A stretch of DNA of 64,000 nt. Origin: a virus (taxonomy: Duplodnaviria > Caudoviricetes). The notes below the pieces were generated by a model, which saw only the letters and a list, made by a program, of their open reading frames with translations, did no database searches and was not told the DNA's origin. The DNA lies in the IMG/VR virus record IMGVR_UViG_3300025053_000003, positions 1-64,000 of that record; one strand, given 5' to 3'. Position numbers and translations under genes: made by a program. Below are positions 4,170 through 50,018 of this stretch, piece after piece. Each line of letters begins with the position of its first letter. Position 1 is the stretch's first letter.

Positions 4170-4785
4170 TTACTTTTCTCCCATTCTTAATCCAAGTATC
4201 TTGTGTTACGTTCAGAGTCCCGATGTGAGCGTTTGTGCAACTGGTGTCAACAAAGATCTTGTATCCTAAATTTCTCACTTTAATGCAGAATCCAAAATCT
4301 TCACTGATAACTCCATTGTGATAAGGGTAATTCATCTCGAACCACTTATTTTTATCCATTCTTTTAAATACTTCTGTCTTAACCAATAAAGAAGCTGCGC
4401 CTACTGCATCAATTTGAACTAATTCGTTCTCTTCCCATTCGGTTATGTTTTTGAATCTGTTATTTTCTTCCTTGAACATAATCGGGTCATAGGGTTCTGA
4501 CCGTCTAAAACTCAAGCCCGACACTATCTGTTTGTCGTGCTGCAATAATTTAGGAATAGTATCAGGGTGGTGGCGATGATCGGTGTCAAGGAACAGTACA
4601 TGGCTAAATGAATCGTCTTTAAGAGCTGCATGAATTATCGAATTGCGTTGGTCGTCTACTCTGCCTCGGTTCCCGATTATTACGCTGTGTTGGGGTTTCT
4701 TTAATTCTATCCATGATTCGAAGAATTGGATATTGAGGAAGTCCCAATTACAGGGGAGACCGATGGCGATGTTTAATTCTCCCAT
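4159..4785 (-). CDS. Glycosyltransferase family 2 (GT-A fold)
   Basis: QRNSII, HVLFLDTD (DxD), IVSG, DAVGAASLLVKTEVF, SEDFGFC, KIFVDTS motifs. Confidence 0.85.
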   Translation of the reverse strand: MGELNIAIGLPCNWDFLNIQFFESWIELKKPQHSVIIGNRGRVDDQRNSIIHAALKDDSFSHVLFLDTDHRHHPDTIPKLLQHDKQIVSGLSFRRSEPYDPIMFKEENNRFKNITEWEENELVQIDAVGAASLLVKTEVFKRMDKNKWFEMNYPYHNGVISEDFGFCIKVRNLGYKIFVDTSCTNAHIGTLNVTQDTWIKNGRKVNGL

Positions 4786-5516
4786 TATAGAGGCCCGTTG
4801 ATTGCTAGTTCGGGGAAGTTTAACTTATGCAGCAATCCTTCCCTTATAATGAATTTATCTCTATCTAATGCTGCATTCCGTGGAGAATTAAAACCTGCGG
4901 TAGTAAATACAACCTTGCCGTTATACATTATCCTTGCTTGAAAACTATCACTGCCTTTATGATAACTTACGCCACAATATCCACTAGAATTCGAATCTCT
5001 TAATAACCTTGAATTTAACGAATTTACTTGACAAGTAACAAACCTGCAATTCTCTGGGGAGTAAGGTCCATCATTGTCTTCCCTATCAATTTCTAATCCT
5101 TCTGAATATGCATTAACTTTACACCAACCGATAAATTTTTGTGGGTCATTCAACCATTCATCACATACATAAATACCACGACCGCCATAATCTTTGTACT
5201 GTTTTTGATTTTTATTATAACAACGTCTCTTGACACTCAACCAAAGACTATAAAACTTATCGATATTATTTCTTTGGGAGAACCCGTGTTTTGTATTTCT
5301 TTCTTTAATTTTTTCTAAATTAAAACAACCACAAGAATTCGTATGTCCTGAAGTTAAAGAATACAATAGAACCTCGACTTTTGTTTTATCAACGCAATTA
5401 CATTCGCAAAGAAATCTCCGTCTTCCCCATTTATTTTTATCAATTTCTTCGACAATTTTTAATCTACCAAATTCTTGTCCAATTACTACATTAATTCTAT
5501 TCTGCCCACCTCTCAT
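4785..5516 (-). CDS. HNH homing endonuclease with C-terminal AP2 domain
   Basis: FGRLKIVEE..CECNC..SCGC; KRRCYN..YGGRGIYVCDEW; IDREDNDGPYSPENCRFVT; NSSGYCGVSYHK..FQARI. Confidence 0.9.
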   Translation of the reverse strand: MRGGQNRINVVIGQEFGRLKIVEEIDKNKWGRRRFLCECNCVDKTKVEVLLYSLTSGHTNSCGCFNLEKIKERNTKHGFSQRNNIDKFYSLWLSVKRRCYNKNQKQYKDYGGRGIYVCDEWLNDPQKFIGWCKVNAYSEGLEIDREDNDGPYSPENCRFVTCQVNSLNSRLLRDSNSSGYCGVSYHKGSDSFQARIMYNGKVVFTTAGFNSPRNAALDRDKFIIREGLLHKLNFPELAINGPL

Positions 5517-5550
5517 AGTATTCCTCCTATGCTAATCCATTTAATAAAAA

Positions 5551-5604
5551 TTGGGGAAAAAGATGGATTAAGTCTTCTTGTCAGGTTCGAATCCCTATCC
5601 CCAA
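5551..5604 (-). ncRNA. Structured HNH-leader RNA motif, copy D
   Basis: TTGGGG-ATAGG-GATTCGAA-CCTGAC-AAGAAGA-CTTAATCCA-TCTTTTT-CCCCAA, ~35 nt upstream of the HNH start. Confidence 0.75.
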
Positions 5605-5627
5605 AATAATATAATAATTTAAACTAC

Positions 5628-5948
5628 TTATGCAGCGAACACGACTAACCCTTTTACAACATGAATATTTGTGACGGCTCCAGAACTGAAGTCAATACCG
5701 GCTGTCAGTCCTACGACATATGCGTCCGCAGAACAAGAAGTTCCAAGGTCTGCGCTCGCCCCAGTTAAAATTAATTTATCCGCTGAGGCATCCCAAGTGG
5801 CGTTGCTTGATGCAGTGTCACCATACATGATCACATCTACGCCGGAATCGTCAACGCCGAAGGATACACTTGCAGCAGTTCCTGCAACTTTCCGTTTAAA
5901 AATTAATTTTCCAGATTCCCACGTTGATTTTACATTTGTTACTGGCAT
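5628..5948 (-). CDS. Hypothetical virion protein
   Basis: 106 aa ORF with AAGGAG RBS in the head module. Confidence 0.75.
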   Translation of the reverse strand: MPVTNVKSTWESGKLIFKRKVAGTAASVSFGVDDSGVDVIMYGDTASSNATWDASADKLILTGASADLGTSCSADAYVVGLTAGIDFSSGAVTNIHVVKGLVVFAA

Positions 5949-6025
5949 AATAATCTCCTTCTCCGTACCGGCTTTTATTCCGGTTTAAGGAAGCGGTTCC
6001 CCCTATTAAATTATTTTAAAACACT

Positions 6026-6334
6026 TTAAGTTTTCTTTTTCGGCCTTCCCGCTTTCTTCTTAGGCGGAGACTGAATCATTTTGTTCATCGGTGTCTCATG
6101 AATCATTTTATCTACTTCAGGGGCATCGATACTCTTTTGCTCTTCTTGTTGCTCTTTCTTCAATTCTGGTTCTTGCGTTTGTTTTACTGGTTTAGCGGTA
6201 GACGTTGCATCTACAATTTCGGCTACTCCTCTTTGGACTAATTCAAGAGCCTTTTGCTTGATAATAGTAAAGGTGTCCGGGGGGACGCGCCCGAGCCATT
6301 CACCTTTTACCATTCTTACTTTTAAATATTCCAT
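6026..6334 (-). CDS. Hypothetical protein downstream of the capsid genes, basic C-terminus
   Basis: 102 aa; GGGAG RBS; ends KKKAGRPKKKT. Confidence 0.75.
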   Translation of the reverse strand: MEYLKVRMVKGEWLGRVPPDTFTIIKQKALELVQRGVAEIVDATSTAKPVKQTQEPELKKEQQEEQKSIDAPEVDKMIHETPMNKMIQSPPKKKAGRPKKKT

Positions 6335-6369
6335 TTGTTCTCCCGGTTAATGGATTTAATTGATTTTAG

Positions 6370-6444
6370 TGGAGGCGGGATCGGGACTTGAACCCGAATA
6401 TTTAGGATATGAGCCTAAAAAGTTAACCATTACTATATCCCGCT
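6370..6444 (-). tRNA. tRNA-Met(CAT), initiator-like
   Basis: Cloverleaf: AGCGGGA/TCCCGCC acceptor, TTAGG-CTCATAT-CCTAA anticodon arm, TCGGG-TTCAAGT-CCCGA T arm, encoded CCA. Confidence 0.9.
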
Positions 6445-6523
6445 TAAAATTGGGGCATATTTCAGCCCCGTAATTTCCGCTATGTTTTATCCCTTAACCC
6501 TTTAAAAGATTAAGGAATAAGGG

Positions 6524-7006
6524 TTAAACGATTGCGGTAGGGGTAGAAGTCCCAGCAATAGTCCGAGGAGCAGACATAATACAAGCAACACTACCGGAAA
6601 CTGGAGAATCAGTCCCTTCAGTTACAGTAAGGCGGGCGAACTTGTCAGTGCCACTAAGTTCAGAAGCATTAACTTCCACCACCACCATACTCCCGGCCCC
6701 AGCGGCAGTCGTATAGCCTACAGCCGTGGCCGCAGTAACTGCCCCAAGGGTATCGCCAGAACTCGCTACCGCGTAAACAAACGGGATGGCGGTTGCAGTG
6801 CCAGGGGCAGTAGTGTCACAACTATCAACAGTGATCGTTGCGGTGCCAGTAGCGCCTACTCCACGGGAGATAACCCAAGTCGCTCTCTCAAAGTTAGAGA
6901 GATTCACGATATCGGTTGAAAATCCACCTTCATAGAGATCATCCATTGCAGCACCAGTAGGCATTGCGTTAACAAAATGTACTTCTTCAATCAGTCTTCC
7001 ACTCAT
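6524..7006 (-). CDS. Putative capsid decoration protein
   Basis: 160 aa, A/T/G-rich (TDIVNLSNFERATWVISRGVGATGTATITV); next structural gene after the major capsid protein. Confidence 0.65.
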   Translation of the reverse strand: MSGRLIEEVHFVNAMPTGAAMDDLYEGGFSTDIVNLSNFERATWVISRGVGATGTATITVDSCDTTAPGTATAIPFVYAVASSGDTLGAVTAATAVGYTTAAGAGSMVVVEVNASELSGTDKFARLTVTEGTDSPVSGSVACIMSAPRTIAGTSTPTAIV

Positions 7007-7028
7007 GATTTTATTCCTCCGTTATTTT

Positions 7029-7973
7029 TTATTGTGAACGTGCAGCAAACCAAAAACTACTACTTGAATTAAACCATCTTTGCCAAATTTCTCTGTTGTG
7101 GTTAGTTTTACCATGACAACTAGAGCATAAAGTTATTAAATTATCATCATCCGAATCGGTCTTTATATAATTTTTATGATGAATAACTAAAAATATTTTC
7201 TTGTTCCCTTTTCTTCCACAAAGTTGGCAACGAAAGTTGTCTCGTTTCTTTATCTTCTTTTTAAGTCTTTTATTAAAACTAGGAGAATATTCACCAAAAG
7301 ATATTCCTCCTAACCAAGTTGAAGATCCTTCACCAGTTTTACCAATTGACAAGCATTCATCAGAACAGTAAAATTTAGAGTGCCTTTCTGACACTGCTTT
7401 TGTTACCATTTTCCCCTTTTCGCATACAGAACATTTTACTTCTACTTGCGAAAAATTAGGATGATTCTCTCCTTGCCAATTTAAATGTTGCCAATTGTGT
7501 AAACACTTCCTATAACAAAAACAATTTTCTTTATTCTCTAAATCTTCCGGCCTAACAAAAATAATTTCATTACAATTTATGCAATTTGTTTCTACTTTAT
7601 TCCTGATATGATTTAAATAACACTTCCTAGAACAAAAACTTCCGTTTGTCTTTTTGTGTTCGTACTCTTTTCTTTTAAAATCACTACCGCACCCATCACA
7701 GGTAAGTGTCACATTTTTATATGATGATAAACATTTACGACTACAGCAGAATCTTTTATTTTTACGCTTATCATATCTTGACTTGTGAATCATAAATACT
7801 GTTTCACAATTTTCACAAATTACTTCTACTTGTTTAAACTTATCATTATTCCTACAAGTAGTATTGCAATAAAATCTTTTTGTTTTATTGGCGTTGTATG
7901 CCCGTTCAGTAATAATCTTTGGTTTGCCGCACGTTTCACATTTTACTTCAATTTTATTCGCTCTTTTACCCAT
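7029..7973 (-). CDS. HNH endonuclease with tandem CxxC...FCSxxC zinc-finger repeats
   Basis: Repeated CxxC/FCSxxC units; C-terminal RDNFRCQLCG..IHHKNYIKTD..NLITLCSSCHGKTN. Confidence 0.9.
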   Translation of the reverse strand: MGKRANKIEVKCETCGKPKIITERAYNANKTKRFYCNTTCRNNDKFKQVEVICENCETVFMIHKSRYDKRKNKRFCCSRKCLSSYKNVTLTCDGCGSDFKRKEYEHKKTNGSFCSRKCYLNHIRNKVETNCINCNEIIFVRPEDLENKENCFCYRKCLHNWQHLNWQGENHPNFSQVEVKCSVCEKGKMVTKAVSERHSKFYCSDECLSIGKTGEGSSTWLGGISFGEYSPSFNKRLKKKIKKRDNFRCQLCGRKGNKKIFLVIHHKNYIKTDSDDDNLITLCSSCHGKTNHNREIWQRWFNSSSSFWFAARSQ

Positions 7974-8009
7974 ACATACATACTCCCACTATAATCCCGT
8001 ATGATAATC

Positions 8010-8063
8010 AGTGCGGAAGTCAATCGGGAGATATTGACTTATCGGGTGCCCCCTATCCGCACT
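8010..8063 (-). ncRNA. Structured HNH-leader RNA motif, copy A
   Basis: AGTGCGG-ATAGG-GGGCA-CCCGAT-AAGTCAAT-ATCTCCCG-ATTGACTT-CCGCACT. Confidence 0.8.
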
Positions 8064-8078
8064 AAAGTTTAACTAATC

Positions 8079-9332
8079 TTACCGAGCCTCAAGAGTTACA
8101 ATCGGGGAGATTGTAGTTGCTGTGGATTGAGGAGGTGTGACTGCTGATTTCCAGGCGCAACTTCCGTCCATTCTGAAAACGAATTTATACGCTGTTTGGT
8201 CTGCGTCGAATTTTAGATGCACAGATGAACTATAAACACCATTTGCTTCTGCGCCAGCTTTAATTGCAACATAATACTGACTCCAATCTACAAGAATGAT
8301 ATCACCAGCAGAAGAAAGTGCAGAACAATGCTTGTTATATACAACTGGAAGACCCATCAAAGTATCAAATGGGCGACCGGCGGCCCCATTAGCCGGGAGC
8401 CAGACAGGAATTCCGCCTGTTCCTACGGCCATGGACATAGTGGCAAGGGTCGGGAGGCAAGCAGGATTTACCATCCAGATAGCATTTACCTTATCATTAA
8501 TACGGGTGTACATATTAAGGATATTCTCGAAGAGAATAGTATTTGCGCCCTGCCCAGTTTCCTTAGAAACGGTAACAAGAGCAGCAGAATTTAAGATCCC
8601 TTGCGGCTTACCAGCACCTGAGCCACGAATTAGAGCATCATTCATCTCAAAAGTCAAGGCGTCACGGAAAGAATCACGAAGAATAACTTCCATGGAAGCA
8701 GGGCTATCAGAGATCATTTCGTCAGTAACGAAAGCCATCAGGCCGAGTTTCTTCAGAGAAAGCCGGAGCTTACCGAACTTCATAGAGCTACCAGTGTGGG
8801 TGTCCTCTTCGTCCATCCAGGTGGCCTGAACATTACCATAAGTCTTGCCGGAACTCTCATCAAAGCCATTTACATAAGGCATTTCGATGGTGTTACGCTG
8901 AAGGGGGACCTTCCGAGTCCGACCGAATGCAAGGTCTTCCTGCATAACGGGACGCAGGAGATCAGAACTCCACTCAGGCGGGATAAGATAAGCACCAGCT
9001 TCGTTATCAGTAACATTCTGAGACGGAGAACCAGCAGCTTTGGTTTCCCACTTCTTCAACTCTTCAGAAACATTGCCGCGATTAGCCTTATAAACGTGAA
9101 CACCGAAGTTGCTCAAAGTTTTAAAGCCAGCAGTGGGGTCTTTGTCAATAGGGTCAGCACCCACCTGAATCCGCTGTTCAATCGGCTCAACAGCCGCCTT
9201 GATCTTAGCGTCAATTTCAGTAGCAAGTGCTTCCTTAAACTTAGCAACAGCCTCATCCACAACGCCAACCGCGCCCTTCGCAATTACTTCATTCAATTCT
9301 TCAACGGTCATAGTTTTCTTTTCAGTATCCAT
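8079..9332 (-). CDS. Major capsid protein, HK97 fold
   Basis: 417 aa; coiled-coil delta domain, AGAYLIPPEW, GSGAGKPQGIL, TLMGLPVVYN, FDADQTAYKFVFRMDG. Confidence 0.95.
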   Translation of the reverse strand: MDTEKKTMTVEELNEVIAKGAVGVVDEAVAKFKEALATEIDAKIKAAVEPIEQRIQVGADPIDKDPTAGFKTLSNFGVHVYKANRGNVSEELKKWETKAAGSPSQNVTDNEAGAYLIPPEWSSDLLRPVMQEDLAFGRTRKVPLQRNTIEMPYVNGFDESSGKTYGNVQATWMDEEDTHTGSSMKFGKLRLSLKKLGLMAFVTDEMISDSPASMEVILRDSFRDALTFEMNDALIRGSGAGKPQGILNSAALVTVSKETGQGANTILFENILNMYTRINDKVNAIWMVNPACLPTLATMSMAVGTGGIPVWLPANGAAGRPFDTLMGLPVVYNKHCSALSSAGDIILVDWSQYYVAIKAGAEANGVYSSSVHLKFDADQTAYKFVFRMDGSCAWKSAVTPPQSTATTISPIVTLEAR

Positions 9333-9439
9333 TATTTAAATCTCCTTTATCTCTTTGTTCGTTTGTTTAGATCGCCTAACATCTCTTAAATGTCTCCAGC
9401 GAAAATTTTCCTTGACGGAATGCTATTTTTATCGTATTG

Positions 9440-9479
9440 TTAAAATGGGAGGGTATACTCAGTCTTCCTCCCATTTTAA
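9440..9479. terminator. 13-bp hairpin between protease and capsid genes (terminator or mRNA stabiliser)
   Basis: TTAAAATGGGAGG-N14-CCTCCCATTTTAA. Confidence 0.55.
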
Positions 9480-9491
9480 AATTAAACTATG

Positions 9492-12026
9492 TTATTCAAA
9501 CTCAATAATACCTTTAGCCATTTTAATTCTGTCTTCTACTATTTCACTGATATTAATTTTACTGAATACTTCTTTTAAATTCTTAGTAAAAATATCCTGT
9601 ACCTGTTCAGGAGTAAAATTTAATTCGGTTTCTTTTTTAGTTGAAGTTAAAAATTCTACCATTTTAGTTTCAGGCATTTGGATTTCTAATCCTTTCTTCT
9701 TATTACTTCTTACATCGATAATTAATTGCCGTTGTGCTTTCATTTGATCTAAAGATTTAACAAGCGCCTCGTCGATAGAAATGTTTAGATCTTCAGCAAT
9801 CATCTTTGCAAATTCCACTAATTCTTTTAAATGAGAACCAGAATATCCAGCAGTCTCTTCCGCAAATTTCTCTATTATTACCTTATCGGCATAATCAACA
9901 AAAAACTTTAATAATTTAATTCTATTTTCTTTATTTGGTAAAGAAAAATTTATAATATGGTGAAATCTACCTGGGCGATCAATCAATGCTTCTGGCATTT
10001 GCTCAGGAAAATTTGAAGTTAAGACAGTTAAAACGCCTTTATTGTCTCTAATCCCATCCATTTCAGTTTTGAGAAGATCAATCGTATAATCTTTCAACCA
10101 AGTATCAATATCTTCAAGAAAAAATACAGAAGGAGCAAGATCCCTTGCCATTTCAAAACCAAGAGCTAATGCACCAGCAGCCCCATATCTAAAATCTTTA
10201 GAAGATGCCCAAATAAAAGTAGTATCAGGCTGATTCATCAATACCTTACCAGTCATCGTCTTGCCTGTCCCTGGGGGGCCGATAAGCATAATCCCTCTAC
10301 TGGGGGAAGTCTTAGTAAGTCTATCAATGCTACCTTTGACTTTATTCTTCGCTTCTTCATCAGGGAAAATTACATCATCCCAACCAATTTCTTTTTTATC
10401 AAGAAATTCTCCCATAATAGAGAATTTTTCACCTTTCAGTAGATTGTTTTCTTTTACCCACTGAATGGCATCCATAGCAAATGATTTATTTAGTTCAATA
10501 TTTTTATCGGTAGTATAAATATTAATCCCATACCCACCCCAATCTGGTTCAATCTGGAATACAAATCTTTCACCAGAATCTGCTTTATAAAACTGTGTCC
10601 CTTGAGTTAAGAATTCTTCTGATCTTTTTGAATTCAACTGGATAACTGAATGGCGAAGAGGAATTTCCCCACCATTTCCATACAAATTCCTCTGATCTAA
10701 TAATTCGTGTTTAGTTAGTGAATTTCTAAAGCCAGATAAATAATTACCTTTCATTGCGCTAGGGATAAAGAAATCAGTAACAAACATATTCTTGATTTTG
10801 CAATTCAGGAATTTACAGAAGACCTTTAGTTCAAAACCAGCAGGTTCAGTTCTTACTGAAGTAATATCAAATTCTTCTTCGCCATACTGTTTTGAGATAA
10901 TTTTCTTATCTTCATCAGAAATATCTTTAATCTTGCAAGATTTCAGAATATTTGTTATTCTATCTACTTCTTCTTGAGTAACCTTTTCTACAGTCGCTAC
11001 TGATTCAATACTCTCTTCTTTTTGAACTTCTAAGATAATATCATTGATTTCTTTTTTAATGCTTTTAACTTCGTCTGTCGCTTTTTCTTCGACGACATCA
11101 ATAGTTTCTGGTTCAGCTACTTCTCCGATTTTCTCTATTTCATTAATAATTTCAAGGTCTAAACCTTTTTCTTCGGCGTCTTCAAGGACTTCCACATTTA
11201 CTATTTTTTCAATTGGTTCAGCATCTTCGACAGTCTCAGTCTCTACTACTGGTTTAGCATCGACAACTTCTTCAATCGTTTCTGATTTTTCTTCTACTGC
11301 ACCTTCGTTTTCTACGGTTTCCTGAACCTCTTGTACCTCTTCGATTACTTCTTCTGGTTCATCAAGTGATTTTTCACTGAGGTTAATAAATCCGATTACT
11401 TTTGCTTTATCTTCCATTGGGAAATCCGGTAGAGAATCCGGCTGGGTGGAGAGGAGTTCGATATATTCTGGGGAGGATTTAGCGTCTTCTGCGAAATCCA
11501 TTACACACTTAGTCTTAATCATGCCAGAAGCAGATCGTTCCACCAGCGCATTCATGTGATCAGGGACAACTGCTGCGCTTACCTCAAACAATTCCACTTT
11601 CTTGTAAACCCGATTAGGCAATTTTCCATTCCTATTATATTTAATAATATCTGCTTCTTTAAAATCTTCCCTTTCGAGATAGTCAAACGCACGGAAGCCC
11701 ACAGAGAACGCATTGAGCACCCCATCCCGGTACAGCTCATAGAATTCTTGTCCTTCCAAAGTTGAAGCGAACTTAACCTTGAATTTTAAGCCTTGTCCCG
11801 GAATTACCCGTGCCCAAAGTGCTTTACCGATAGGAGGCCTGTCATATTGATGGAACGCGGGGATAACCGGATTTTTCAAAAAGTTCTCTAAATCCCAAGC
11901 TTCGTCTTCGATAAGGTCGCCTGACCTGTCAATGGAGTCTGACTTATTTGCCCATGCAACTACTGATTTCTCTTCGTCATTCACTTCCTTTTTAAAGCAA
12001 GTGGCGAACATTTTATTTTCAATCAT
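9492..12026 (-). CDS. HK97-type prohead protease fused to an acidic linker and an AAA+ ATPase
   Basis: N-terminus FHQYDRPPIGK, LNAFSVGF, LFEVSAAVVP; Glu-rich linker; GPPGTGKT, FFLEDID, LTSNFPE, ALIDRPGRF. Confidence 0.9.
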   Translation of the reverse strand: MIENKMFATCFKKEVNDEEKSVVAWANKSDSIDRSGDLIEDEAWDLENFLKNPVIPAFHQYDRPPIGKALWARVIPGQGLKFKVKFASTLEGQEFYELYRDGVLNAFSVGFRAFDYLEREDFKEADIIKYNRNGKLPNRVYKKVELFEVSAAVVPDHMNALVERSASGMIKTKCVMDFAEDAKSSPEYIELLSTQPDSLPDFPMEDKAKVIGFINLSEKSLDEPEEVIEEVQEVQETVENEGAVEEKSETIEEVVDAKPVVETETVEDAEPIEKIVNVEVLEDAEEKGLDLEIINEIEKIGEVAEPETIDVVEEKATDEVKSIKKEINDIILEVQKEESIESVATVEKVTQEEVDRITNILKSCKIKDISDEDKKIISKQYGEEEFDITSVRTEPAGFELKVFCKFLNCKIKNMFVTDFFIPSAMKGNYLSGFRNSLTKHELLDQRNLYGNGGEIPLRHSVIQLNSKRSEEFLTQGTQFYKADSGERFVFQIEPDWGGYGINIYTTDKNIELNKSFAMDAIQWVKENNLLKGEKFSIMGEFLDKKEIGWDDVIFPDEEAKNKVKGSIDRLTKTSPSRGIMLIGPPGTGKTMTGKVLMNQPDTTFIWASSKDFRYGAAGALALGFEMARDLAPSVFFLEDIDTWLKDYTIDLLKTEMDGIRDNKGVLTVLTSNFPEQMPEALIDRPGRFHHIINFSLPNKENRIKLLKFFVDYADKVIIEKFAEETAGYSGSHLKELVEFAKMIAEDLNISIDEALVKSLDQMKAQRQLIIDVRSNKKKGLEIQMPETKMVEFLTSTKKETELNFTPEQVQDIFTKNLKEVFSKINISEIVEDRIKMAKGIIEFE
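9883..9910 (-). promoter_or_regulatory. Sigma28/FliA-type promoter inside the protease gene, facing the capsid gene
   Basis: TAAA-GTTTTTTGTTGATTAT(16)-GCCGATAA. Confidence 0.6.
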
Positions 12027-12030
12027 TATT

Positions 12031-12297
12031 TTATTCCTCCTTGTTCTCGTCTTTATCTTCTTTCTCTACTTTTCTTATTTCAACTTCTCCGTACAATTCT
12101 TCGGTTTCCAGTTCGTCATCTTTTATAATAAGTTTTCCATCTTTATCTTCTTTAAATTTAAGAATATATCCCAATTCTTCATCAGCAGTCCTACAATAAT
12201 TTACTTTAATTCCATTCAAAAATGCCGTATATTTGTAAGCCTTTGGTGTATAACCAATATCATCTTGATTTACTGATGCTCTCATTTTAAGCCTCAA
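12031..12297 (-). CDS. Hypothetical protein (likely start ATG 12285)
   Basis: ORF packed directly upstream of the protease gene. Confidence 0.65.
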   Translation of the reverse strand: MRLKMRASVNQDDIGYTPKAYKYTAFLNGIKVNYCRTADEELGYILKFKEDKDGKLIIKDDELETEELYGEVEIRKVEKEDKDENKEE

Positions 12298-12463
12298 ATT
12301 GTCCTAATTTATAATCCTTCTTCTCGTCCGTGTGCAGGCAAATACCTTTTATAATAATTGGTTTATATTCATAACTTTTATTAAAATCATATTTAATGTT
12401 ATTCGAACAATTTTCACATGCCTTTGGATTTGTATAAGGTAGAGTGCAATTACATGTTCTCAT
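12287..12463 (-). CDS. Small Cys-rich protein (58 aa, not in the ORF track)
   Basis: MRTCNCTLPYTNPKACENCSNN...; GGAGG RBS; fills the gap between neighbours. Confidence 0.6.
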   Translation of the reverse strand: MRTCNCTLPYTNPKACENCSNNIKYDFNKSYEYKPIIIKGICLHTDEKKDYKLGQFEA

Positions 12464-12464
12464 T

Positions 12465-13691
12465 TTATTCCTCCCAACTGACCCACTCTTTATTAGTTAA
12501 TTCTTTATCTTCAATTCTAATAGGCAGATTAAATGTAATACCATGAACAGGGTGTGTAATAAAGAAATTTTGGGTAGGTGGTTCAAATGGATAATTCCCC
12601 TTCGCTGCATATTCACTAAATCCAACCAATGAACCGTTGCATATACACCGTTGAGCAAATGTCATAGATTGATGGAAGTGCCCAATCAATAATACATCGT
12701 AATCTGCATTCATTGACCTAGCAGAAGAGCGTTTCTTCATGTCACCGCGCAAAATCGGTCCAAGCGCGCCGAGGATTCCGTTTCCACCGGAAAATTGCGA
12801 ACCATGTGTGATTCTATAAGTGTAATCGTACACCTTATATTGAGCATCTTCACCATCTGCAATTAAAAATTTAATTCTTTTGTCATTTTCAAAGAACTTA
12901 GCAAGGAGTTGATATTGAAGCCAGTCCATTGAATCGTATGCGTACCCCTTCGCTCTCGGTTTAAGAGTCAATCGCCCATGATTCCCGGCTACACAGGGAA
13001 CAAATACCTTCCCAAATGAATCAGCTAATTTTTTAATTGCTTCAATCATTGCATCTAAAAGTTCAAGGCTCACTTGTAATACTTCTTTTTCACCTGTTAT
13101 CTTCAATTCGTCATGAATGAGTCCAGTGCTGAGGTCACCAAGTAGAGGGACAATGATCCCTGGATACTTAGCATTAGCTATATGATTAAATGATAAATCA
13201 ATAGCTTTATCAACCACTACTTGCAATCTATGTTTAGCAATTTCAATATTGTATTTATTTACTCCGAATATCTGGTCAGGATCAACCACCTCTCCAAAAT
13301 GCAGGTCGCTAATACATAAAGTAGGTACTCCAATCGTCCCATCATTAAAATTTGACTCTTTACTTAGCCATTCTGGGATGATATGATTGGAATCTTTTAA
13401 ATTGAGAATAAATCTCTTTATATATTCAGCGGAAACGCTATTTTTATTTGCTTCCACTAATTCTTTTCTTAAGTCCTGGATTTGTGATTTAAGGATAAGT
13501 GTTTCGTTACCATTTTCTGATTGTACTTTAAAAATTTCTTTGTATCTTGTGTTGTTTTTAGCCCGCCTCAAGTGGTTGCGTACTGTTGTTCTGGGAAGGT
13601 TAAGCTCCCTGGCTGTTGCTCTGGCGTTTTTATCCAGTTTCAGGAATGTTTCAACAATCAATTCTTGGATCTCTTGTGATTCTGTAGTCAA
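12465..13691 (-). CDS. Calcineurin-like metallophosphoesterase with N-terminal HTH
   Basis: SDLHFGE, LLGD, VAGNHG, ITHG, LIGHFH; N-terminal ARATARELNLPRTTVRNHL. Confidence 0.85.
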   Translation of the reverse strand: MTTESQEIQELIVETFLKLDKNARATARELNLPRTTVRNHLRRAKNNTRYKEIFKVQSENGNETLILKSQIQDLRKELVEANKNSVSAEYIKRFILNLKDSNHIIPEWLSKESNFNDGTIGVPTLCISDLHFGEVVDPDQIFGVNKYNIEIAKHRLQVVVDKAIDLSFNHIANAKYPGIIVPLLGDLSTGLIHDELKITGEKEVLQVSLELLDAMIEAIKKLADSFGKVFVPCVAGNHGRLTLKPRAKGYAYDSMDWLQYQLLAKFFENDKRIKFLIADGEDAQYKVYDYTYRITHGSQFSGGNGILGALGPILRGDMKKRSSARSMNADYDVLLIGHFHQSMTFAQRCICNGSLVGFSEYAAKGNYPFEPPTQNFFITHPVHGITFNLPIRIEDKELTNKEWVSWEE

Positions 13692-13707
13692 AATTTTTCT
13701 CCCTTAA

Positions 13708-14655
13708 TTATGACTTATTAAAGCAATCTTTATGGGTATGATGTGAGCGACAGACTAAAATCTGGTGGCTCATATTATCCGCTTCATTTAAATATAAAGA
13801 AACCATTAAATTATGATGAATAAATAAGTCTTTCTGATCAAATTCTACACCGCAAACTTCACAAAAATTATACCCAAACTCATCTAATTGCAATTGGAGC
13901 AACATTTCTCTATTCAAATCCTGATTACACCTAGCTTGTATTATAAGATCTCTCTGCGATTTTGGCAGAAATTTTGCTTTAAAAACATCACACTCCTGCT
14001 TACATTTTTGTGAATCATATAAGTGACATTCTTTCCCATCACTAGTATTAAGTGATGTTATCCTGTTACTTACTTCCCTTACTGTAGGATAAAAATATTT
14101 ACCACATTTAAAACATTTACATAACATGAAGCCATGCTCATTTTCAATTGGAGACTCCTCAACTGTTAACCTGTCAGCAAACGTTTTAAATAACGCCTTG
14201 CCATTAGCATATTTTTTCTTTTTTAAAACCAATTCGTCTTTATTTTCAATTCTATATTTCTTATTATATTCCGATTTTTTATCTTTATTGACCTCGTATA
14301 ACTTACGCGCCGCCAATAATTTCTTCTCTCTGTTTCTATAATACGAAAGTCTTTCCTTTTCCCTTATTCTGTCTCTATTTAATTCTCTCTTTTCCTTACT
14401 TTTCTTAGAAATATATTCCTTATTCTTTTTAGTGTAATTCCTTTGTCTTTCTTTTATATATTCTGAATTTTCTAAATATACTTCTTTGCTTTTCTTCAAA
14501 AATATTTCTCTATTATTTTCATAATATTTTCTTTTATTTTTAGAACAACATTCTTTGCAGTCAGTCCTCCTCCCATCACTAGAACCTTCTCTTCTGTAAA
14601 ACTCTCTTAACTCCTTTTCTTCTCCACATTTTGTACAAACTTTCGTTTCTTCCAT
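13708..14655 (-). CDS. HNH endonuclease (N-terminal CxxC..CxxC, basic coiled coil, C-terminal HNH)
   Basis: KVCTKCGEEK..CKEC; FCEVCG..FIHHNL..NMSHQILVCRSHH. Confidence 0.85.
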   Translation of the reverse strand: MEETKVCTKCGEEKELREFYRREGSSDGRRTDCKECCSKNKRKYYENNREIFLKKSKEVYLENSEYIKERQRNYTKKNKEYISKKSKEKRELNRDRIREKERLSYYRNREKKLLAARKLYEVNKDKKSEYNKKYRIENKDELVLKKKKYANGKALFKTFADRLTVEESPIENEHGFMLCKCFKCGKYFYPTVREVSNRITSLNTSDGKECHLYDSQKCKQECDVFKAKFLPKSQRDLIIQARCNQDLNREMLLQLQLDEFGYNFCEVCGVEFDQKDLFIHHNLMVSLYLNEADNMSHQILVCRSHHTHKDCFNKS

Positions 14656-14690
14656 TTTAATACCTCCGATAGGTATCCCGAGTTAAATTA

Positions 14691-14750
14691 TTAGCACAGA
14701 AATGAGACTCGGATTTTCTCACTTGTCGGGGATCAGCCTATCTGTGCTAA
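14691..14750 (-). ncRNA. Structured HNH-leader RNA motif, copy C
   Basis: TTAGCACAG-ATAGG-CTGATC-CCCGAC-AAGTGAGA-AAATCCGAG-TCTCATTT-CTGTGCTAA. Confidence 0.8.
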
Positions 14751-14754
14751 ACTA

Positions 14755-16140
14755 TTATCTATTTAAAATTTCCTTCATCTTCTCAGGTGACGATACAACA
14801 TTCCCTTCGCCTGTGCCTTCGGCAATACTAGCTAAAAGGCCAGATGGGGTTGTAAAGTTAACTGGGATAAAAGGCTGTTTAAACACGCCACCAAGTTCAG
14901 GTAATCCAAGTTTATCTCTTTCTTCGTCTACTGAAGTGATTGAGGTTTGGATGTGTTTTACGCTTTGATTCAACTCGAACAATTTATCAGATGGTATACA
15001 ATTATCATAAGCGACGAAAAGCTTTTCGTCATAACGCCAAATCATCTTCTCATTTAGTTTTTCTTCAATCCTTCTAAGCCTTGGCTGAATAGTAAACTGC
15101 ATAAATGTCGCAATGGCAGCATCAGCATTGTTCCTATTGGCCTCTGAGCTGTACATACCCAATGCTTGCCCAAACGCATTAAGCACAGCCTCTTTGATCC
15201 TGTCGCGCCCTCCTAGGTATGACATATCCTTTGGAGAATTGTTCGTGAAAGGTTTGTACTTCAACCCATGATCAAGGAGGGGCATAGAACCACCTTTTGA
15301 CGCACCGCCTAACATTTGTTTGATCTCAATTTTCAGACGTTCAAACTCATGGTCTCCTAACTCGGAATCAGTTTCAAAAACACCATTTAGATTATTTCCC
15401 CCATTCCTGAAAATCGCGGCCTCATATTCATTAATGGATTTAGCTAATCCATATTCTTCCGCGATACTAGTGACGGGGCTACTTCCATAATATTGATTCT
15501 TTGGGTTGGGCATTTTAAAATGGATAATTGAGCGTTCTGATAAATCAATCTCTTCTGTACTTTTTATATACTTGTACCCAGATATAAACTTCTTAGCATC
15601 TGGCATTATTTTACAATTTTGAGGGGGGATCAACCAAATCTCCCTTGGGACCCCAAATTTATCCTCTAATATATGCCAGAAAGCGTTTCCTGTCAACTCC
15701 TGATACAGCTGAGTCATTTCGAACAAATCAAAGGAATTTACAAATGGGTTTACATTTGTTTTCAGATCTAAAAACGGATGGTCAAGCACCTCTTCGAAGG
15801 ATGATGCCTTTCTAATAGCAGGAATATTGTTCAGGAATGGATTTTCTCTTATGAATCTTTCCTGTTTTATGTCAACTGCTTTCGTTTGTACTCGTTTTAC
15901 CCTTTGGCTTTTGTTGTTCTTCGCAACATAAAGTCTCAATGGTGTATTCGCTACAGTCGAAGCATTCTTATTCGATGCTACATAAATCCACGACCTGTAG
16001 CTGTTTATCATTGCATAAAAATCTTCATCACTATGCAACTCTCTCCCATATTGATAGGGATACAGGTAAGGAAGCAAAGCCCCCTTCCTCTTTCCCCCGG
16101 CAGCCTTTAACTGTACTTCATATGAAAATGGATTAGCCAT
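14755..16140 (-). CDS. Portal protein, HK97 family
   Basis: 461 aa; YQELTGNAFW, SIIHFKMPNPKNQYYGSSPV, FRNGG, PLLDHGLKY; position after terL. Confidence 0.95.
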   Translation of the reverse strand: MANPFSYEVQLKAAGGKRKGALLPYLYPYQYGRELHSDEDFYAMINSYRSWIYVASNKNASTVANTPLRLYVAKNNKSQRVKRVQTKAVDIKQERFIRENPFLNNIPAIRKASSFEEVLDHPFLDLKTNVNPFVNSFDLFEMTQLYQELTGNAFWHILEDKFGVPREIWLIPPQNCKIMPDAKKFISGYKYIKSTEEIDLSERSIIHFKMPNPKNQYYGSSPVTSIAEEYGLAKSINEYEAAIFRNGGNNLNGVFETDSELGDHEFERLKIEIKQMLGGASKGGSMPLLDHGLKYKPFTNNSPKDMSYLGGRDRIKEAVLNAFGQALGMYSSEANRNNADAAIATFMQFTIQPRLRRIEEKLNEKMIWRYDEKLFVAYDNCIPSDKLFELNQSVKHIQTSITSVDEERDKLGLPELGGVFKQPFIPVNFTTPSGLLASIAEGTGEGNVVSSPEKMKEILNR

Positions 16141-16143
16141 ATG

Positions 16144-16923
16144 TTATCCTTCGATTGTATTTGGTATAATTTGAGTATTGTTGATTCTATCTTTAGCTAT
16201 ATTAAAATAGGTTAAATCTTTTTCTATTCCTATAAATTTTCTACTTAAGTTTTTACATGCTACGCCTGTTGTGCCACTGCCCATTGTAAAATCTAATACG
16301 GTTTCTGATTCATTTGTATAAGTTTTAATTAAGTATTCCATTAATGCTACTGGTTTTTGGGTGGGGTGAATAGTCTTACCTTCGCTTTTTATTTCTATTA
16401 CACAAGTGGGATAATTTTCATTTTTACATGTATATCCAGAAGTATGGTTAGTTTGTGATTCTCTATGATATTTAAGATCGCTTGTGTTCTTGTTTTGTTT
16501 AACAATCGTAGTTCCTGGCCTTATTCCTTGAGGATTATAATTCATTCTCTTTTCCCCGGCTTGCAATAAGTGTCCAATAATTCCCTTAGAAAATACACAA
16601 ATATTCTCGGTTATTTTTAATGGCATATTAGGAGCATGTGGAAAATTACTCCCTTTGCTTTTCTTCCACACCCAATCATATTTGTACATTTTTATATTAC
16701 TCATCCGTAATGCACTACTAAACGGTTCACTGCCGAACAATACAATAGCACCATTAGGTTTAATAACCCTCTTTAGCTGCTCCCACATAGCCTCAAACGG
16801 GATAACTGAATCCCATTTACAAGCAGTAGTCCCGTAAGGAGGATCGGTGATAATAGCATCTACACTCCCATCAGGAATGCCTTTCATTACTTCTAAACAA
16901 TCACCTTGATATAGATTTATCAT
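16144..16923 (-). CDS. N6-adenine/N4-cytosine DNA methyltransferase (beta class)
   Basis: GDCLEVM, TDPPYG, HPTQKPV, VLDFTMGSGTTG. Confidence 0.92.
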   Translation of the reverse strand: MINLYQGDCLEVMKGIPDGSVDAIITDPPYGTTACKWDSVIPFEAMWEQLKRVIKPNGAIVLFGSEPFSSALRMSNIKMYKYDWVWKKSKGSNFPHAPNMPLKITENICVFSKGIIGHLLQAGEKRMNYNPQGIRPGTTIVKQNKNTSDLKYHRESQTNHTSGYTCKNENYPTCVIEIKSEGKTIHPTQKPVALMEYLIKTYTNESETVLDFTMGSGTTGVACKNLSRKFIGIEKDLTYFNIAKDRINNTQIIPNTIEG

Positions 16924-17355
16924 TTACTGTTCCATGATTTTCTTAAATTGATTAAATCTATTACGGACAAAATCTTCGTGCATTATTTTCTCATTCCAAA
17001 TTTTACTTTCAATATCATAATATTCGCAAACAACCGATATTTTATCTTCGTTGTAATTTAAAGAGCATTCGCCGTATTCGTTCTGGCAGAAGTCTTTGAT
17101 ATAAAAATTTATTCCTTCATATACAAACATTAACCCTTTAGGGAATTCCATTTCAAGTCGTTTAGCGAAGAAATAAAAGTTATCTTCTTTGTTGTTCAGG
17201 AGGATAGTTAAATTAAAAGTTAAGTAGTTAAATACTTTAATTAACCTTTGTGTTATAAGTTGGAGTGGTTTTAATAACTTGTTTGTTATATTTGTTAAGT
17301 TTTTGGTTTTCAATCGATCATCCTTATGTGTGGAACGGCTGGGGAGTAGAAACAC
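16924..17355 (-). CDS. Hypothetical protein (true start probably ~17150)
   Basis: The 5' part of the ORF overlaps the terL tail; the 3' half abuts the MTase. Confidence 0.45.
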   Translation of the reverse strand: MFLLPSRSTHKDDRLKTKNLTNITNKLLKPLQLITQRLIKVFNYLTFNLTILLNNKEDNFYFFAKRLEMEFPKGLMFVYEGINFYIKDFCQNEYGECSLNYNEDKISVVCEYYDIESKIWNEKIMHEDFVRNRFNQFKKIMEQ

Positions 17356-19058
17356 ATTCTTAAAGCGGCAAATTTATCATCACTTTTGCCGCTTAATTTC
17401 TTCTTAATCGTTTTTTTATCACTTACTTTGATTTTGCCAGAATTAGGATCTTCTTTATAGTCATAACATAACATCTGACAAAATCATTCTGCATCTTCAG
17501 GTAACATAGCTGCTGGTTCTTTTTTTAACCATTCAGCCACCGCCCATGCAAGTTCATCCCTTGTCAGGGCCAGCTTTCCAAATTCACACTTTTTATTACT
17601 TGGAGAACTGACATATACCTTTCTAATGTTGAAATGAAGTCTCTTCATTTCTTTGTGACACATAGGACATTGAAATATTGTAGTATCAAGATAGGTTTTA
17701 TTAACTCCTTCGCAACTAATATTTTCACACTGCCAATAAAACATTGAGCTTACTTTCGGCGGAATAGCTGCACCGATACCATCTGCCTCAACCTGCGCCT
17801 GTAATGCATTAAGATCACAATAAGTTTGAGCTAATCTATCCGCAGATCTATCAAGATTTATCCCAGACCACGGAATAAAACTAGAAACAAAATTTCCATA
17901 TTTTATTGCAATACACGAGTCATCTGCGCCTTCATCTGCGACATCCATCCCGAGTATGGGTCTAATTCCATTTGTTGCCTGATCGCCATATTGCGCTTTA
18001 TACAATTTCCATCTTGTAAACGCATTATCAATGTCAACTTCATTAAATAGTGCATTTTGACTAGCGGCAGGGTATCGACCTAGTGTAATCGTTGCAAATT
18101 GAGAATCTTTTATTCTTCTCCATCCTCCCTCCAATGGTGGGTAAATTTTACCTGAGCTTGAAACACCTACAGCGCCTACTAGGCAAGATGGAACTTCAAA
18201 ACAATTAATCTCATCGGGTTCTTCATCTTCTCTAACTGGAACAGTCCATTCCATAATACGTTGAATCGTTTTATCCCGGCTAACTGCCCCATGTATTACT
18301 TCTTCACCAGTGACAACATTCGGGTGATTCAGTGCATTTAAATGAACTATATGTCCTAATTTATCTTTCCAAACCTTATAAGTATAACCAGATTTTTGGC
18401 GGGGGTTATATAACATTAAAAGACGAACGTGACTACCGCTAAGGCAGCCGTCAATCGCTTCAAAAATTTCATCGGGACACCCGTCAGCCTCATCTACTAT
18501 GTACAGTTGGTATTTGGCGTGCTTGCCGCTGAAGGACGCTTTTCTGCGTTCTGGGGTTCCAGATGTAGGTATTGCCTTCCCGATTAAAAAATGTTTTAAA
18601 TTTATATCATCGTCATCATCCTTTGCATTAACATCATCAGTTATTTTTAACGTAGTCAATACATGATTTTTAAATAATGATTTTTTATACCTATAAAAAA
18701 CATTTGCTATTTCACTAAACAACCCCTGTTTTAAATTTTCTTCTGGTGGAGCCGCAGCACAAATTACCTGAGAATCAGGGAAGCATAAATAAAACCAAGC
18801 TGCCAAATGAGAAGCGATAAATGTTTTGCCAGTCCCATTCGATGACATAGCCAAGGTAATTTTATTGTCCTTTACACTATTTGCCACCCGAATTAAATCA
18901 TCATATAAATTTTTAACACCTAATTCTTTTTCTAAAAATTCAATCGGATTTTCTTGGTATTTTTTTAAGTCTCCATGGAGTAAATTAGCTACTTGGTCTT
19001 CTCCAAATGCACTTATTAAATAATCTAATGCTTGATCGTCTAAATTTGTCATTAACAA
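17310..19058 (-). pseudogene. terL: Large terminase with an in-frame TGA at 17484-17486
   Basis: SSNGTGKT, IVDEADG, LYNP, GMDVADEGADDS; frame stays open after the TGA for 57 codons including GKIKVSDKK..SDDKFAAL. Confidence 0.85.
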
Positions 19059-19907
19059 CCTTTATGTTCATGGCATTCATCACATACTATTATTTGATGG
19101 CTCATATCATCAGCCATTGTATGGTCTTTGCCAACCATTATGTTGTGATGGATGATTAATTCTTCTCGCGGAAGAGGCCTGCCGCATTTTTCACAGTAGG
19201 TATAGCCAAATTCGTCTTCTTGGTTATCCAGTAATGCTTTGCGATTAATGGGCTGGTTGCAACGTGCTCTTTTTGTTATATTCCTCAATTCTCTTGGCGT
19301 TGTTCTTGCTCTGTATACGCCACACGATAATTTATGCTCATCACAACAATATAAATGAATTTCTTTCCCATCGTTATTATTATTTAACGAATTAAGTCTA
19401 TTTGATACCTGTCCGTTATTTGGGATAAAATACTCTTTGCAATGATAACATCTACACATAATAAATCCGTTTTCATCGCAAATTGGCTCCTCATCAATTG
19501 TTAATTTATTTTTATATGTTTCATAAAGAGCTGAGCTATTCCTATATTTTTTAGATCTCTATAGCACATATTCCTTGTTATTTTCGTAATATTTTTTACC
19601 TCTTTCTTGGAATAAACTTTTATTCTCTTCTCTTCTCTTCTCTTCTAATTTTTTCATCACTTAATATCTTATCTCTATTTTTCTCGTACCACTTCTTACC
19701 GCCTATTTTATGCTTTTCTTTATTATTTTCGTAATATTTTTTACCGCTATCAGACTTATGAACATTTGGAGAACTTTTTAAATAAATTTGTCTACATTCT
19801 TTACATAAAGTGTCCTTTCCAAATTTACAGCCTTTATGATTGACAAAAGCATCTAATTCCTTTTCTTCACCACAAACTCTGCACTTCTTCGTTTTAATCT
19901 CTTCCAT
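19052..19907 (-). pseudogene. Disrupted HNH endonuclease, paralog of 13708..14655
   Basis: Frameshift in (GAAGA)4 at 19623-19646 plus in-frame TAG at 19559-19561; joined halves match the 13708 architecture. Confidence 0.85.
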
Positions 19908-19940
19908 CTACGCCTCCTTCAAGCGTTCCTTATTACTAAA

Positions 19941-19991
19941 AGTGGAAATAGAGCAAGGATTTCTCTACTTGTCGGGTGCCCCCTATCCACT
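19941..19991 (-). ncRNA. Structured HNH-leader RNA motif, copy B
   Basis: AGTGG-ATAGG-GGGCA-CCCGAC-AAGTAGAG-AAATCCTTG-CTCTATTT-CCACT. Confidence 0.8.
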
Positions 19992-20011
19992 ACACCATAC
20001 ACCTACCAAAT

Positions 20012-20188
20012 CTACCTATAATTCACAACTAAATGAATTCCATTCTTCACCGCAACTTGACACCACAACGCCTCATCAGCAGTCTTATGACCACCCTGGC
20101 ACTCACACAATCGCTCAGTTCTATCTTCAGTACAGAAGAACGATCTAAAATAATCCCCAATCTTACAAGTGGAAATAATATAATCCAT
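20012..20188 (-). CDS. Small hypothetical protein (58 aa, not in track)
   Basis: ATG overlaps the terS stop (ATGA); MDYIISTCKIGDYF... Confidence 0.55.
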   Translation of the reverse strand: MDYIISTCKIGDYFRSFFCTEDRTERLCECQGGHKTADEALWCQVAVKNGIHLVVNYR

Positions 20189-20841
20189 CATTTCTTTTGA
20201 CCTATTCTCTTCGCCATCCCAACGCGAATATTTTCTTGAATTTCAGGAGGCAACAAAGCACAGAACTGCTTAAAATCAACAGGCAACGTCCTTTCTGAAT
20301 CCTTATCAAACATCCCAAGCGTCTTAGACAAAGCATCTAATGCTACAGTCTTCCCGATAAGTTTATATCCCTTTATATTTCCTCTGCGGTCATAGACAAT
20401 ATCCTGAATTGCCGCTGCGTGTTCTCTGTCCAGTAGATGAATCGGGATTAGCTTCCCTTCTTCGTCATAATAATTTGCAAAATTGCTATATCCAACGTGC
20501 GCGTATTCAGCTAGGACTCTTTCTTGGGTAATTTGTAATTTTTTAGTGATTTTCTTTTGGAGGCGTTCAATTTCTTTCTGAACGAGCCGATTGGCGAGGA
20601 GTCTAGCTCCAAATACTTGAGCATTCCAAGGAGGATACCCTACTGCTCTTGCGGCTTTTTCACCGCTATATGAACTGACATACTCAGCGCAAAATCTTTG
20701 AACTCTAACTGGAAGATCTTCGTCTTCTTTAATTGTCGATAGTTCTTTCAAGGCTGAATTGTACTCGTCAACGCTAAAATCAGTATTTTGCACTAATTCA
20801 AGCGAATCCTGCATAAATCGTTCTTTTTCTTCTGAGTTCAT
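20188..20841 (-). CDS. terS: Small terminase subunit (Terminase_2-like)
   Basis: FCAEY..AARAVGY..GARLL..VQKEI; ITQERVLAEY; LDALSKTLGMF. Confidence 0.88.
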   Translation of the reverse strand: MNSEEKERFMQDSLELVQNTDFSVDEYNSALKELSTIKEDEDLPVRVQRFCAEYVSSYSGEKAARAVGYPPWNAQVFGARLLANRLVQKEIERLQKKITKKLQITQERVLAEYAHVGYSNFANYYDEEGKLIPIHLLDREHAAAIQDIVYDRRGNIKGYKLIGKTVALDALSKTLGMFDKDSERTLPVDFKQFCALLPPEIQENIRVGMAKRIGQKK

Positions 20842-49932: not shown

Positions 49933-50018
49933 GCCGCCTTAGTTCAGTTGGTAGAACACCTGATAAATGACTTTATGTAATCAGGTTGTCGTGGGTTCGA
50001 TTCCTACAGGCGGCTCCA
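49933..50018 (+). tRNA. tRNA-Thr(TGT)-like with a 17-nt anticodon loop
   Basis: GCCGCCT/AGGCGGC acceptor, GTTC/GAAC D stem, CCTGA/TCAGG stem, GTGGG-TTCGATT-CCTAC, CCA; loop TAAATGACTTTATGTAA. Confidence 0.8.

Follow-up and report, generated by a model that had tools for sequence, protein, structure and literature searches.

What do four similar RNA leaders do for the selfish nuclease genes which they precede within the packaging and head operon of a phage? The question is raised by a stretch of 64,000 nucleotides (nt), henceforth the window, which comprises positions 1 to 64,000 of the IMG/VR virus record IMGVR_UViG_3300025053_000003, a 74.7-kb phage contig from groundwater metagenomes. The packaging/head operon genes are interrupted here by four nuclease genes of the HNH/EndoVII type (A to D), and ahead of each of them the minus strand carries a three-way junction of ca. 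52 nt with the layout P1 - AUA - P2 (GGG..CCC) - GAY - P3 (starting with AAG and ending with YUU) - P1′. The core pattern GATAGG..GAYAAG occurs four times in the window compared to an expectation of 0.14, and a covariance model built in the present analysis (R1), run unfiltered on the 64 kb, matched exactly the leaders A, B, C and D and nothing more. As outlined below, the loop of P3 (L3) covaries among homologues with two downstream sites, of which the second is the Shine-Dalgarno (SD) sequence, and we consider it moderately probable that the leader controls in cis the translation initiation of the gene behind it.

The four leaders were each delimited by sequence, fold and R1 score and lie, as all genes between 4.1 and 21 kb, on the minus strand. 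Leader A (8011..8062; 55.7 bits, E 1.7e-14) is built up by P1 (8062-8057/8016-8011), AUA (8056-8054), P2 (8053-8044), GAU (8043-8041) and P3 (8040-8033/8024-8017), which is capped by the loop AUCUCCCG (8032-8025). Its expression platform (7971..8010) consists of a linker, site 1 (CGGGA, 7999-7995) and site 2, the SD sequence UGGGAG (7988-7983). Leader B (19940..19992; 55.6 bits) contains P1 (19991-19987/19945-19941), P2 (19983-19974) and P3 (19970-19963/19953-19946) with the loop AAAUCCUUG (19962-19954); in its platform (19905..19939) site 1 (UAAGGA, 19932-19927) is followed by a further hairpin termed P4 (19926-19910), and the SD sequence GAAGGAGG (19920-19913) lies in and beside the P4 loop. 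The equivalent elements of leader C (14694..14747; 44.8 bits) are P1 (14747-14742/14699-14694), P2 (14738-14728, with GAUC in the loop), P3 (14724-14717/14707-14700) and the loop AAAUCCGAG (14716-14708), and its platform (14653..14693) is composed of site 1 (CUCGGGA, 14682-14676) and hairpin P4 (14677-14659) with the SD sequence AUCGGAGG (14670-14663). Leader D (5551..5604; 46.9 bits) is formed by P1 (5604-5599/5556-5551), P2 (5595-5583, with UUCGAA in the loop), P3 (5579-5573/5563-5557) and the loop CUUAAUCCA (5572-5564); its platform (5514..5550) provides a site 1, UGGAUUAG (5539-5532), which forms 8 pairs with L3, and the SD sequence AGGAGG (5528-5523), which matches L3 weakly. The distance from the upstream stop codon to P1 is 7–23 nt in the window copies and usually 6–14 nt in the family.

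An earlier note on this DNA had claimed that each P3 loop is complementary to sites 3′ of its own leader, and these complementarities were found in place for all four copies on the minus strand. Each loop can pair with a site 7–10 nt past the leader and, weakly in D, with the SD region. In copy D the target indeed precedes the AGGAGG sequence, but at a spacing of 3 nt instead of the 4 nt previously given. Pairing at site 1 is more conserved than pairing at the SD sequence. Loop A, however, pairs equally well with the targets of C and with its own, and the specificity of loops for their targets is modest when the window's four copies are taken alone. Since loop A fits the C targets and the D loop pairs poorly with its SD sequence, the claim that loop and target change together needed evidence from outside the window.

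Homologous leaders were collected by pattern scans of IMG/VR, which yielded 120 viral loci, about half of them with the full P1/P3 fold, and of bacterial and archaeal genomes, which yielded another 120 loci, 58 of them with the fold. When 43 distinct sequences were aligned by fitting them to the model, P1 and P3 proved to covary strongly, with 96.5% of the cells paired and 162 double changes; this degree of covariation was reached by none of 500 shuffles, and slid controls drop to 38–55%. The pairing of each L3 with its own downstream region was then compared with that of permuted loops in 10,000 permutations. For 38 distinct viral leaders the mean Watson-Crick run in the site-1 region is 5.47 with the own loop versus 3.38 with permuted loops (z 13.7), and in the SD region 4.92 versus 3.58 (z 9.0). 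The result is replicated in 46 leaders from bacterial genomes (z 9.0 at site 1 and 7.6 in the SD region), and in neither set was an observed value at either site attained by any permutation, while codons 2–7, which served as control, are flat (z 1.2 viral, 0.5 bacterial). Even SD flanks that deviate from the canonical sequence track the loop, as documented by the loop/target combinations GCCUU/AAGGCGG, UGUCC/AAGGACA and UCCCUG/CAGGGA. Only L3 covaries with the downstream region (z 15.3), every other leader strand reaching at most 1.8, and the covariation test revealed no alternative partners for the strands of P1, P2 and P3. The postulated co-change, which is modest among the four window copies, is thereby strongly upheld among the homologues. 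One viral contig (L099) contains three leaders, two of which are divergent (L099:3264-3318 and L099:1183-1236, both on the minus strand; R1 29–31 bits), which indicates that lower-scoring family variants exist beyond the reach of the pattern scans.

The family is related to an RNA already catalogued. Nine of 18 homologue loci reach the gathering score (35.8 bits) of the Rfam family RF02996, the int-alpA RNA, with 36–44.5 bits. The int-alpA motif reportedly originates from the survey of Weinberg et al. 2017 and is listed in Rfam as a candidate of the small RNA (sRNA) type without an assigned function. The window's four copies gave no match to RF02996, neither at the gathering score nor at E ≤ 10, which we attribute to their AU-rich stems. 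Nevertheless, the RF02996 model of 71 positions displays the same three-way junction with the core ..UAG[P2]CGAnAAG[P3].. and a 14-nt tail past P1 ending in a conserved AgGG that is equivalent to site 1. The window copies likewise consist of P1, UA, a G-rich P2, CGAnAAG at the entry to P3, and a P3 that is joined directly to P1′, and all four possess the purine-rich tail (AgGG) ca. 10 nt past P1 which is complementary to the P3 loop. They differ in location, as they head HNH/EndoVII nuclease genes in a phage late operon and not the satellite interval between the integrase gene and alpA. With R1, whose seeds include the Rfam-positive loci L040, L076 and L119, the window copies score 44.8–55.7 bits compared to 56.7 bits for L040 and 58.3 bits for L076. 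Copy B and L076 share the junction core and the P2 hairpin, and their loops (AAAUCCUUG and UUUCCUUG) are very similar, while the stem sequences of P1 and P3 differ. On account of the shared core and of R1 scores resembling those of Rfam-positive members, we file the window leaders as divergent int-alpA-type leaders; judged by these likenesses they appear to be low-GC members of the family below the formal Rfam threshold. As the Rfam model misses low-GC members, the int-alpA family would be larger than catalogued. Rfam scans of the window at the gathering score and of copy A and the loci L001-L004 at E ≤ 10 gave nothing relevant and no ribozyme family. The junction layout also prompted a comparison with hammerhead, twister, pistol, hatchet and HDV-like ribozymes, which were rejected because their core motifs are absent and Rfam matches are lacking. 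In the literature searched, int-alpA is mentioned only by name and no functional study was found; nothing relevant was retrieved by full-text queries with the core sequence or on RNA motifs associated with homing endonuclease genes.

The genes headed by the family extend well beyond nucleases. On viral contigs most of them encode nucleases of homing type, among them HNH, GIY-YIG and EndoVII enzymes, and a minority are helicase, glycosyltransferase or unknown genes. In bacterial genomes the leader precedes integrase genes, DnaD/primase/helicase genes, winged-helix regulators and unknown genes, and HNH was encountered just once. As integrase, replication and regulator genes are also headed, the family is not nuclease-specific, and the int-alpA-type RNA is, as far as its gene neighbourhoods indicate, a general leader of mobile-element genes. 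A tRNA gene is also present at several of the loci that were scanned with Rfam, as is often the case in integrated elements. A blastn search of E. coli genomes with an 86-nt leader of the Proteobacterial type gave no match. Leaders are also present in cultured phages, where they sit in unannotated intergenic gaps, namely in Aeromonas phage 62AhydR11PP (L250:1498-1549, 57 bits) and Vibrio phage phiV208 (L249:836-887, 37 bits) before hypothetical genes and in Curvibacter phage P26059A (L125:2497-2546, 42 bits) before a putative endonuclease gene.

How might such a leader act? The anatomy of the region between P1 and the start codon provides several indications. The pairings with site 1 and with the SD sequence overlap by a mean of 4.4 loop bases, and by at least 2 in 55 of 56 cases, so that they employ the same L3 bases and are mutually exclusive; the site-1 pairing uses slightly more 3′ loop bases than the SD pairing. 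In 75 of 81 leaders the SD sequence is enclosed by hairpin P4, whose stability exceeds that of shuffled sequences (mean z -1.65, t = -10.5). The hairpin begins 0–2 nt past site 1 in 53 of these 75, from which it follows that a helix between L3 and site 1 would abut P4. The linker from P1′ to site 1 measures 7–10 nt in 45 of 59 leaders and contains 7% G versus 26% in the flanks, and the start codon is found 28–45 nt past P1 in 58 of 59 leaders and at 46 nt in the remaining one. Linker length and composition thus bear the apparent signature of a geometric constraint inside one molecule; a correlation between linker length and P3 length was not found. An upstream target comparable to seqA of phage P4 was sought and turned out not to be significant (z 1.8 and 0.1). 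The constrained, G-poor linker and the lack of an upstream target together favour an action in cis.

Consistent with these data we propose the following scenario. The rigid junction P1 - AUA - P2 - GAY - P3 would hold out L3 as an anti-Shine-Dalgarno-like loop. In one state L3 would bind to the decoy, i.e. site 1 located 7–10 nt past P1, thereby forming a pseudoknot helix that abuts P4 with the ribosome-binding site (RBS) in the P4 loop. In the alternative state L3 would contact the SD sequence (site 2) in a loop-loop interaction. Either state could hinder the 30S subunit, or the decoy state might be the permissive one. We infer that the interaction lowers translation. The net effect would be a limited, perhaps gated, initiation on a gene inside a strongly expressed late operon, the genes governed being four selfish nucleases here and satellite/prophage regulators, integrases and replication genes elsewhere. 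The joint change of loop, target and SD flank is what selection for pairing predicts, and an occlusion of the RBS by a pseudoknot or kissing interaction is therefore the most economical interpretation. This is also the mechanism put forward in the earlier note, which gains from the co-change, including that of the SD flanks, but loses some generality by the weak site 2 of D.

A precedent exists in RBS-sequestering structures on the homing-endonuclease mRNAs of T-even phages, namely those of I-TevI, I-TevII/III, Aeh1 mobE and segB, which demonstrate that the expression of such genes is commonly restrained at the RBS (PMC3014915). In both cases a selfish nuclease gene resides within essential, highly transcribed phage genes and an RNA structure is positioned at the RBS, with the hold-down of expression being presumed for the window leaders. 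The T-even hairpins, however, are simple and local, belong to no conserved sequence family and are overcome by means of a late promoter within the hairpin. The window leaders, in contrast, are constructed on a conserved junction scaffold, pair via a loop at a distance with two sites and contain no evident promoter inside the structure.

An additional property of the family is found in the P2 loops, which are rich in palindromes. At least 4 nt are palindromic in 33 of 42 distinct loops and 6 nt in 20 of 42, compared to 13.8 and 2.4, respectively, in shuffled loops. Examples include CUGCAG, UCGCGA, GAGCUC and GGCC; in the window such palindromes occur in C (GAUC, 14736-14730) and D (UUCGAA, 5592-5586), while the P2 loop GGCA of A and B, the commonest in the family, is not palindromic. 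The palindromes suggest a formation of kissing dimers or a role at the DNA level.

Several observations weigh against the proposed cis control of translation. The D loop interacts only weakly with its own SD sequence (-3.7 kcal/mol), and a good P4 is present in the window copies B and C and missing in A and D; pairing with the SD sequence is consequently not universal. If P1 and P3 stack coaxially, the linker of 7–10 nt would only just reach L3. Rfam classifies int-alpA as an sRNA. Finally, a simple anti-SD lock accounts neither for the invariant junction (GGAUAGGG..CCCGACAAG..UUUCC) nor for the palindromic P2 loops, features that are suggestive of a bound factor or of RNA dimers.

The sRNA classification leads to the C4 RNAs (RF01695), i.e. 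c4 of phages P1 and P7 and CI of phage P4, which are trans-acting products of RNase P processing. They regulate early genes or replication genes in mobile elements, and one target of P1 c4 overlaps the ribosome-binding site. The analogy to these RNAs, drawn already in the earlier note, is apt with respect to architecture. The C4 RNA of phage P4 likewise forms a three-way junction, in which the first hairpin is short and capped and the second one bears the antisense loop. Two repeats located on the same transcript, seqA and seqC, serve as complementary targets of this CI RNA (PMC4825925). It is conceivable that, likewise, the 52-nt junction is freed from the transcript, by the transcript start or an RNase P cut at P1 and an RNase E cut in the AU-rich linker, and acts in trans as an immunity-type antisense RNA on site 1 and the SD sequence of its own or sister transcripts. 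We regard this proposal, together with its release route, as rather unlikely. It would accommodate the classification in Rfam, the position of the family ahead of satellite and prophage early genes (integrases, DnaD/primase/helicase) and the AU-rich, G-poor linker. It would further agree with a TATAAT-like hexamer (at least 5/6 identities) that ends 5–8 nt before P1 in 26 of 82 homologues. The sharp positional peak of this putative -10 box just ahead of P1 implies that many leaders begin at the transcript +1. In the window, C and D offer a 5/6 TATAAT hexamer ending 6 nt before P1 and A and B weaker -10-like hexamers; a full sigma-70 promoter scan of 5400-20300 gave sites that do not exceed those of shuffles, and immediately ahead of the four leaders it gave none. 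However, the constrained linker and the abutment of P4 on site 1 correspond to a single folded cis domain, both targets are placed downstream within 45 nt whereas one of those in phage P4 is upstream, contacts of five to seven base pairs are weak for an action in trans, and no terminator follows P1. Moreover, four different loops in one phage would demand four separate trans regulators. The junction of C4 is also wired differently, with a 17-bp P1, no J1/2 or J2/3 and a 7-nt J3/1. The covariance models do not recognise each other's RNAs: that of C4, which finds the CI RNA of phage P4 at 74.9 bits, has no match in or around the four window copies at E ≤ 10, and R1 run on phage P4 does not find CI RNA.

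A combination of cis pairing with contacts between molecules may be envisaged on the basis of the palindromic P2 loops. They would allow two leaders to kiss, as the dimerisation loops of retroviruses do, and in the dimer each L3 would quit its own decoy and grip the SD loop of the other molecule. The int-alpA leader would then be a cross-phylum translation governor of mobile elements which senses RNA dosage or a partner RNA, an idea we consider quite unlikely. If it were true, the translation of nucleases, integrases and the satellite switch gene alpA would proceed while transcripts are rare and cease with rising copy number, and the leader would represent an RNA-only analogue of c4/CI immunity, distributed from Firmicute-type phages to Proteobacterial satellites.

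Could the invariant junction itself be the sensing element? Approximately 22 junction nt are nearly invariant across phages and bacteria of 39–80% GC while the stems vary freely, although this invariance among homologues is partly imposed by the search patterns used. A small molecule or a universal factor of the host or a helper phage might bind there, its occupancy setting L3 on the decoy (on) or on the SD sequence (off), for which the two mutually exclusive pairings would provide the switch. The conservation of leader A may be read in the same direction, since the genes next to its block have diverged much further. A segment of ca. 110 nt with sharp borders (8086-7977, minus strand), which starts 24 nt ahead of P1 and extends to the start codon, is ca. 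95% identical to L247:5264-5373 on the contig of another phage, while the flanking capsid and HNH proteins share 52% and 31% identity, respectively. Between the two copies L3 and both targets are unchanged; P2 of L247 carries a compensatory exchange of GGG/CCC to GGA/UCC, which supports the fold, and a new palindromic loop. This block identity, which counts for the cis control as well, would reflect either a very strong constraint or a separate exchange of the leader. Against a sensor speak the strands of P1 and P3, which lack the alternative partner that is usual in riboswitch platforms, and the downstream genes, which share no common metabolic theme; altogether, such a function is very unlikely. 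A nuclease-free relative that would define the cassette borders was not found, as L247, the closest capsid relative, carries leader and nuclease at this place and L248 is too distant. The HNH gene of L247 is also divided into two open reading frames (ORFs; 91 and 225 amino acids (aa)).

The greater conservation of the site-1 contact raises the question of whether the SD pairing is required at all. The fold might serve as a processing or stability device, self-cleaving, RNase-recruiting or protective at the 5′ end, in which the pseudoknot between L3 and site 1 is purely architectural. Of the two contacts, the one with site 1 is stronger and more universal, and the -10 peak places the fold at the 5′ end of many transcripts. 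Copy D, in addition, shows a weak match to alpha_tmRNA of the tRNA clan (L001:1490-1618, minus strand; 21.5 bits, E 0.004, below the cut-off), an echo attributed to the T-loop-like GGGAUUCGAACCU of P2 with its UUCGAA loop. Yet the covariation of the SD flanks with L3 extends past the shared GGA core (z 9.0 and 7.6), as an architectural role would not require, and no Rfam ribozyme family matches; we judge this explanation to be most improbable.

The cis control of initiation would be exerted within the late operon. The operon includes the genes of the small terminase (20188-20841), the large terminase (17484-19058), the portal (14755-16140), a protease-AAA fusion (9492-12026) and the major capsid protein (8079-9332), all on the minus strand. 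The fusion is an ORF of 844 aa in which a Peptidase_S78 prohead protease domain is joined to an AAA+ ATPase. The four nucleases are encoded on the minus strand as well. Gene A (7029-7973, ATG 7973-7971) codes for an HNH nuclease, and gene C (13708-14655, ATG 14655-14653) for a protein of 315 aa with an EndoVII/Zn-ribbon N-terminus and an HNH-like C-terminus. The product of gene D (4785-5516, ATG 5516-5514) is an HNH nuclease assigned to phrog_374. Gene B consists of two ORFs, 19620-19907 (95 aa, ATG 19907-19905) and 19052-19459 (135 aa), separated by ca. 160 nt. The 95-aa ORF is 37% identical to the N-terminus of nuclease C and the 135-aa ORF 48% identical to its residues 178-311. Because gene B is split and both halves resemble nuclease C, it may constitute a decaying or two-part paralogue of gene C. 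A tRNA gene (6373-6444, minus strand) is situated between the cassettes of nucleases A and D, and a second one is located at 49933-50015 (plus strand). A megablast search with window positions 5400-20200 gave no GenBank phage match.

The covariation at two sites provides the orphan Rfam family int-alpA with a concrete and directly testable mechanism, for which the cultured carriers Aeromonas phage 62AhydR11PP, Vibrio phage phiV208 and Curvibacter phage P26059A offer experimental systems. As the same leader is found on the homing endonuclease genes of lytic-type phages and on the integrase, replication and regulator genes of integrated elements, one RNA device may set the expression of mobile-element genes across phyla.

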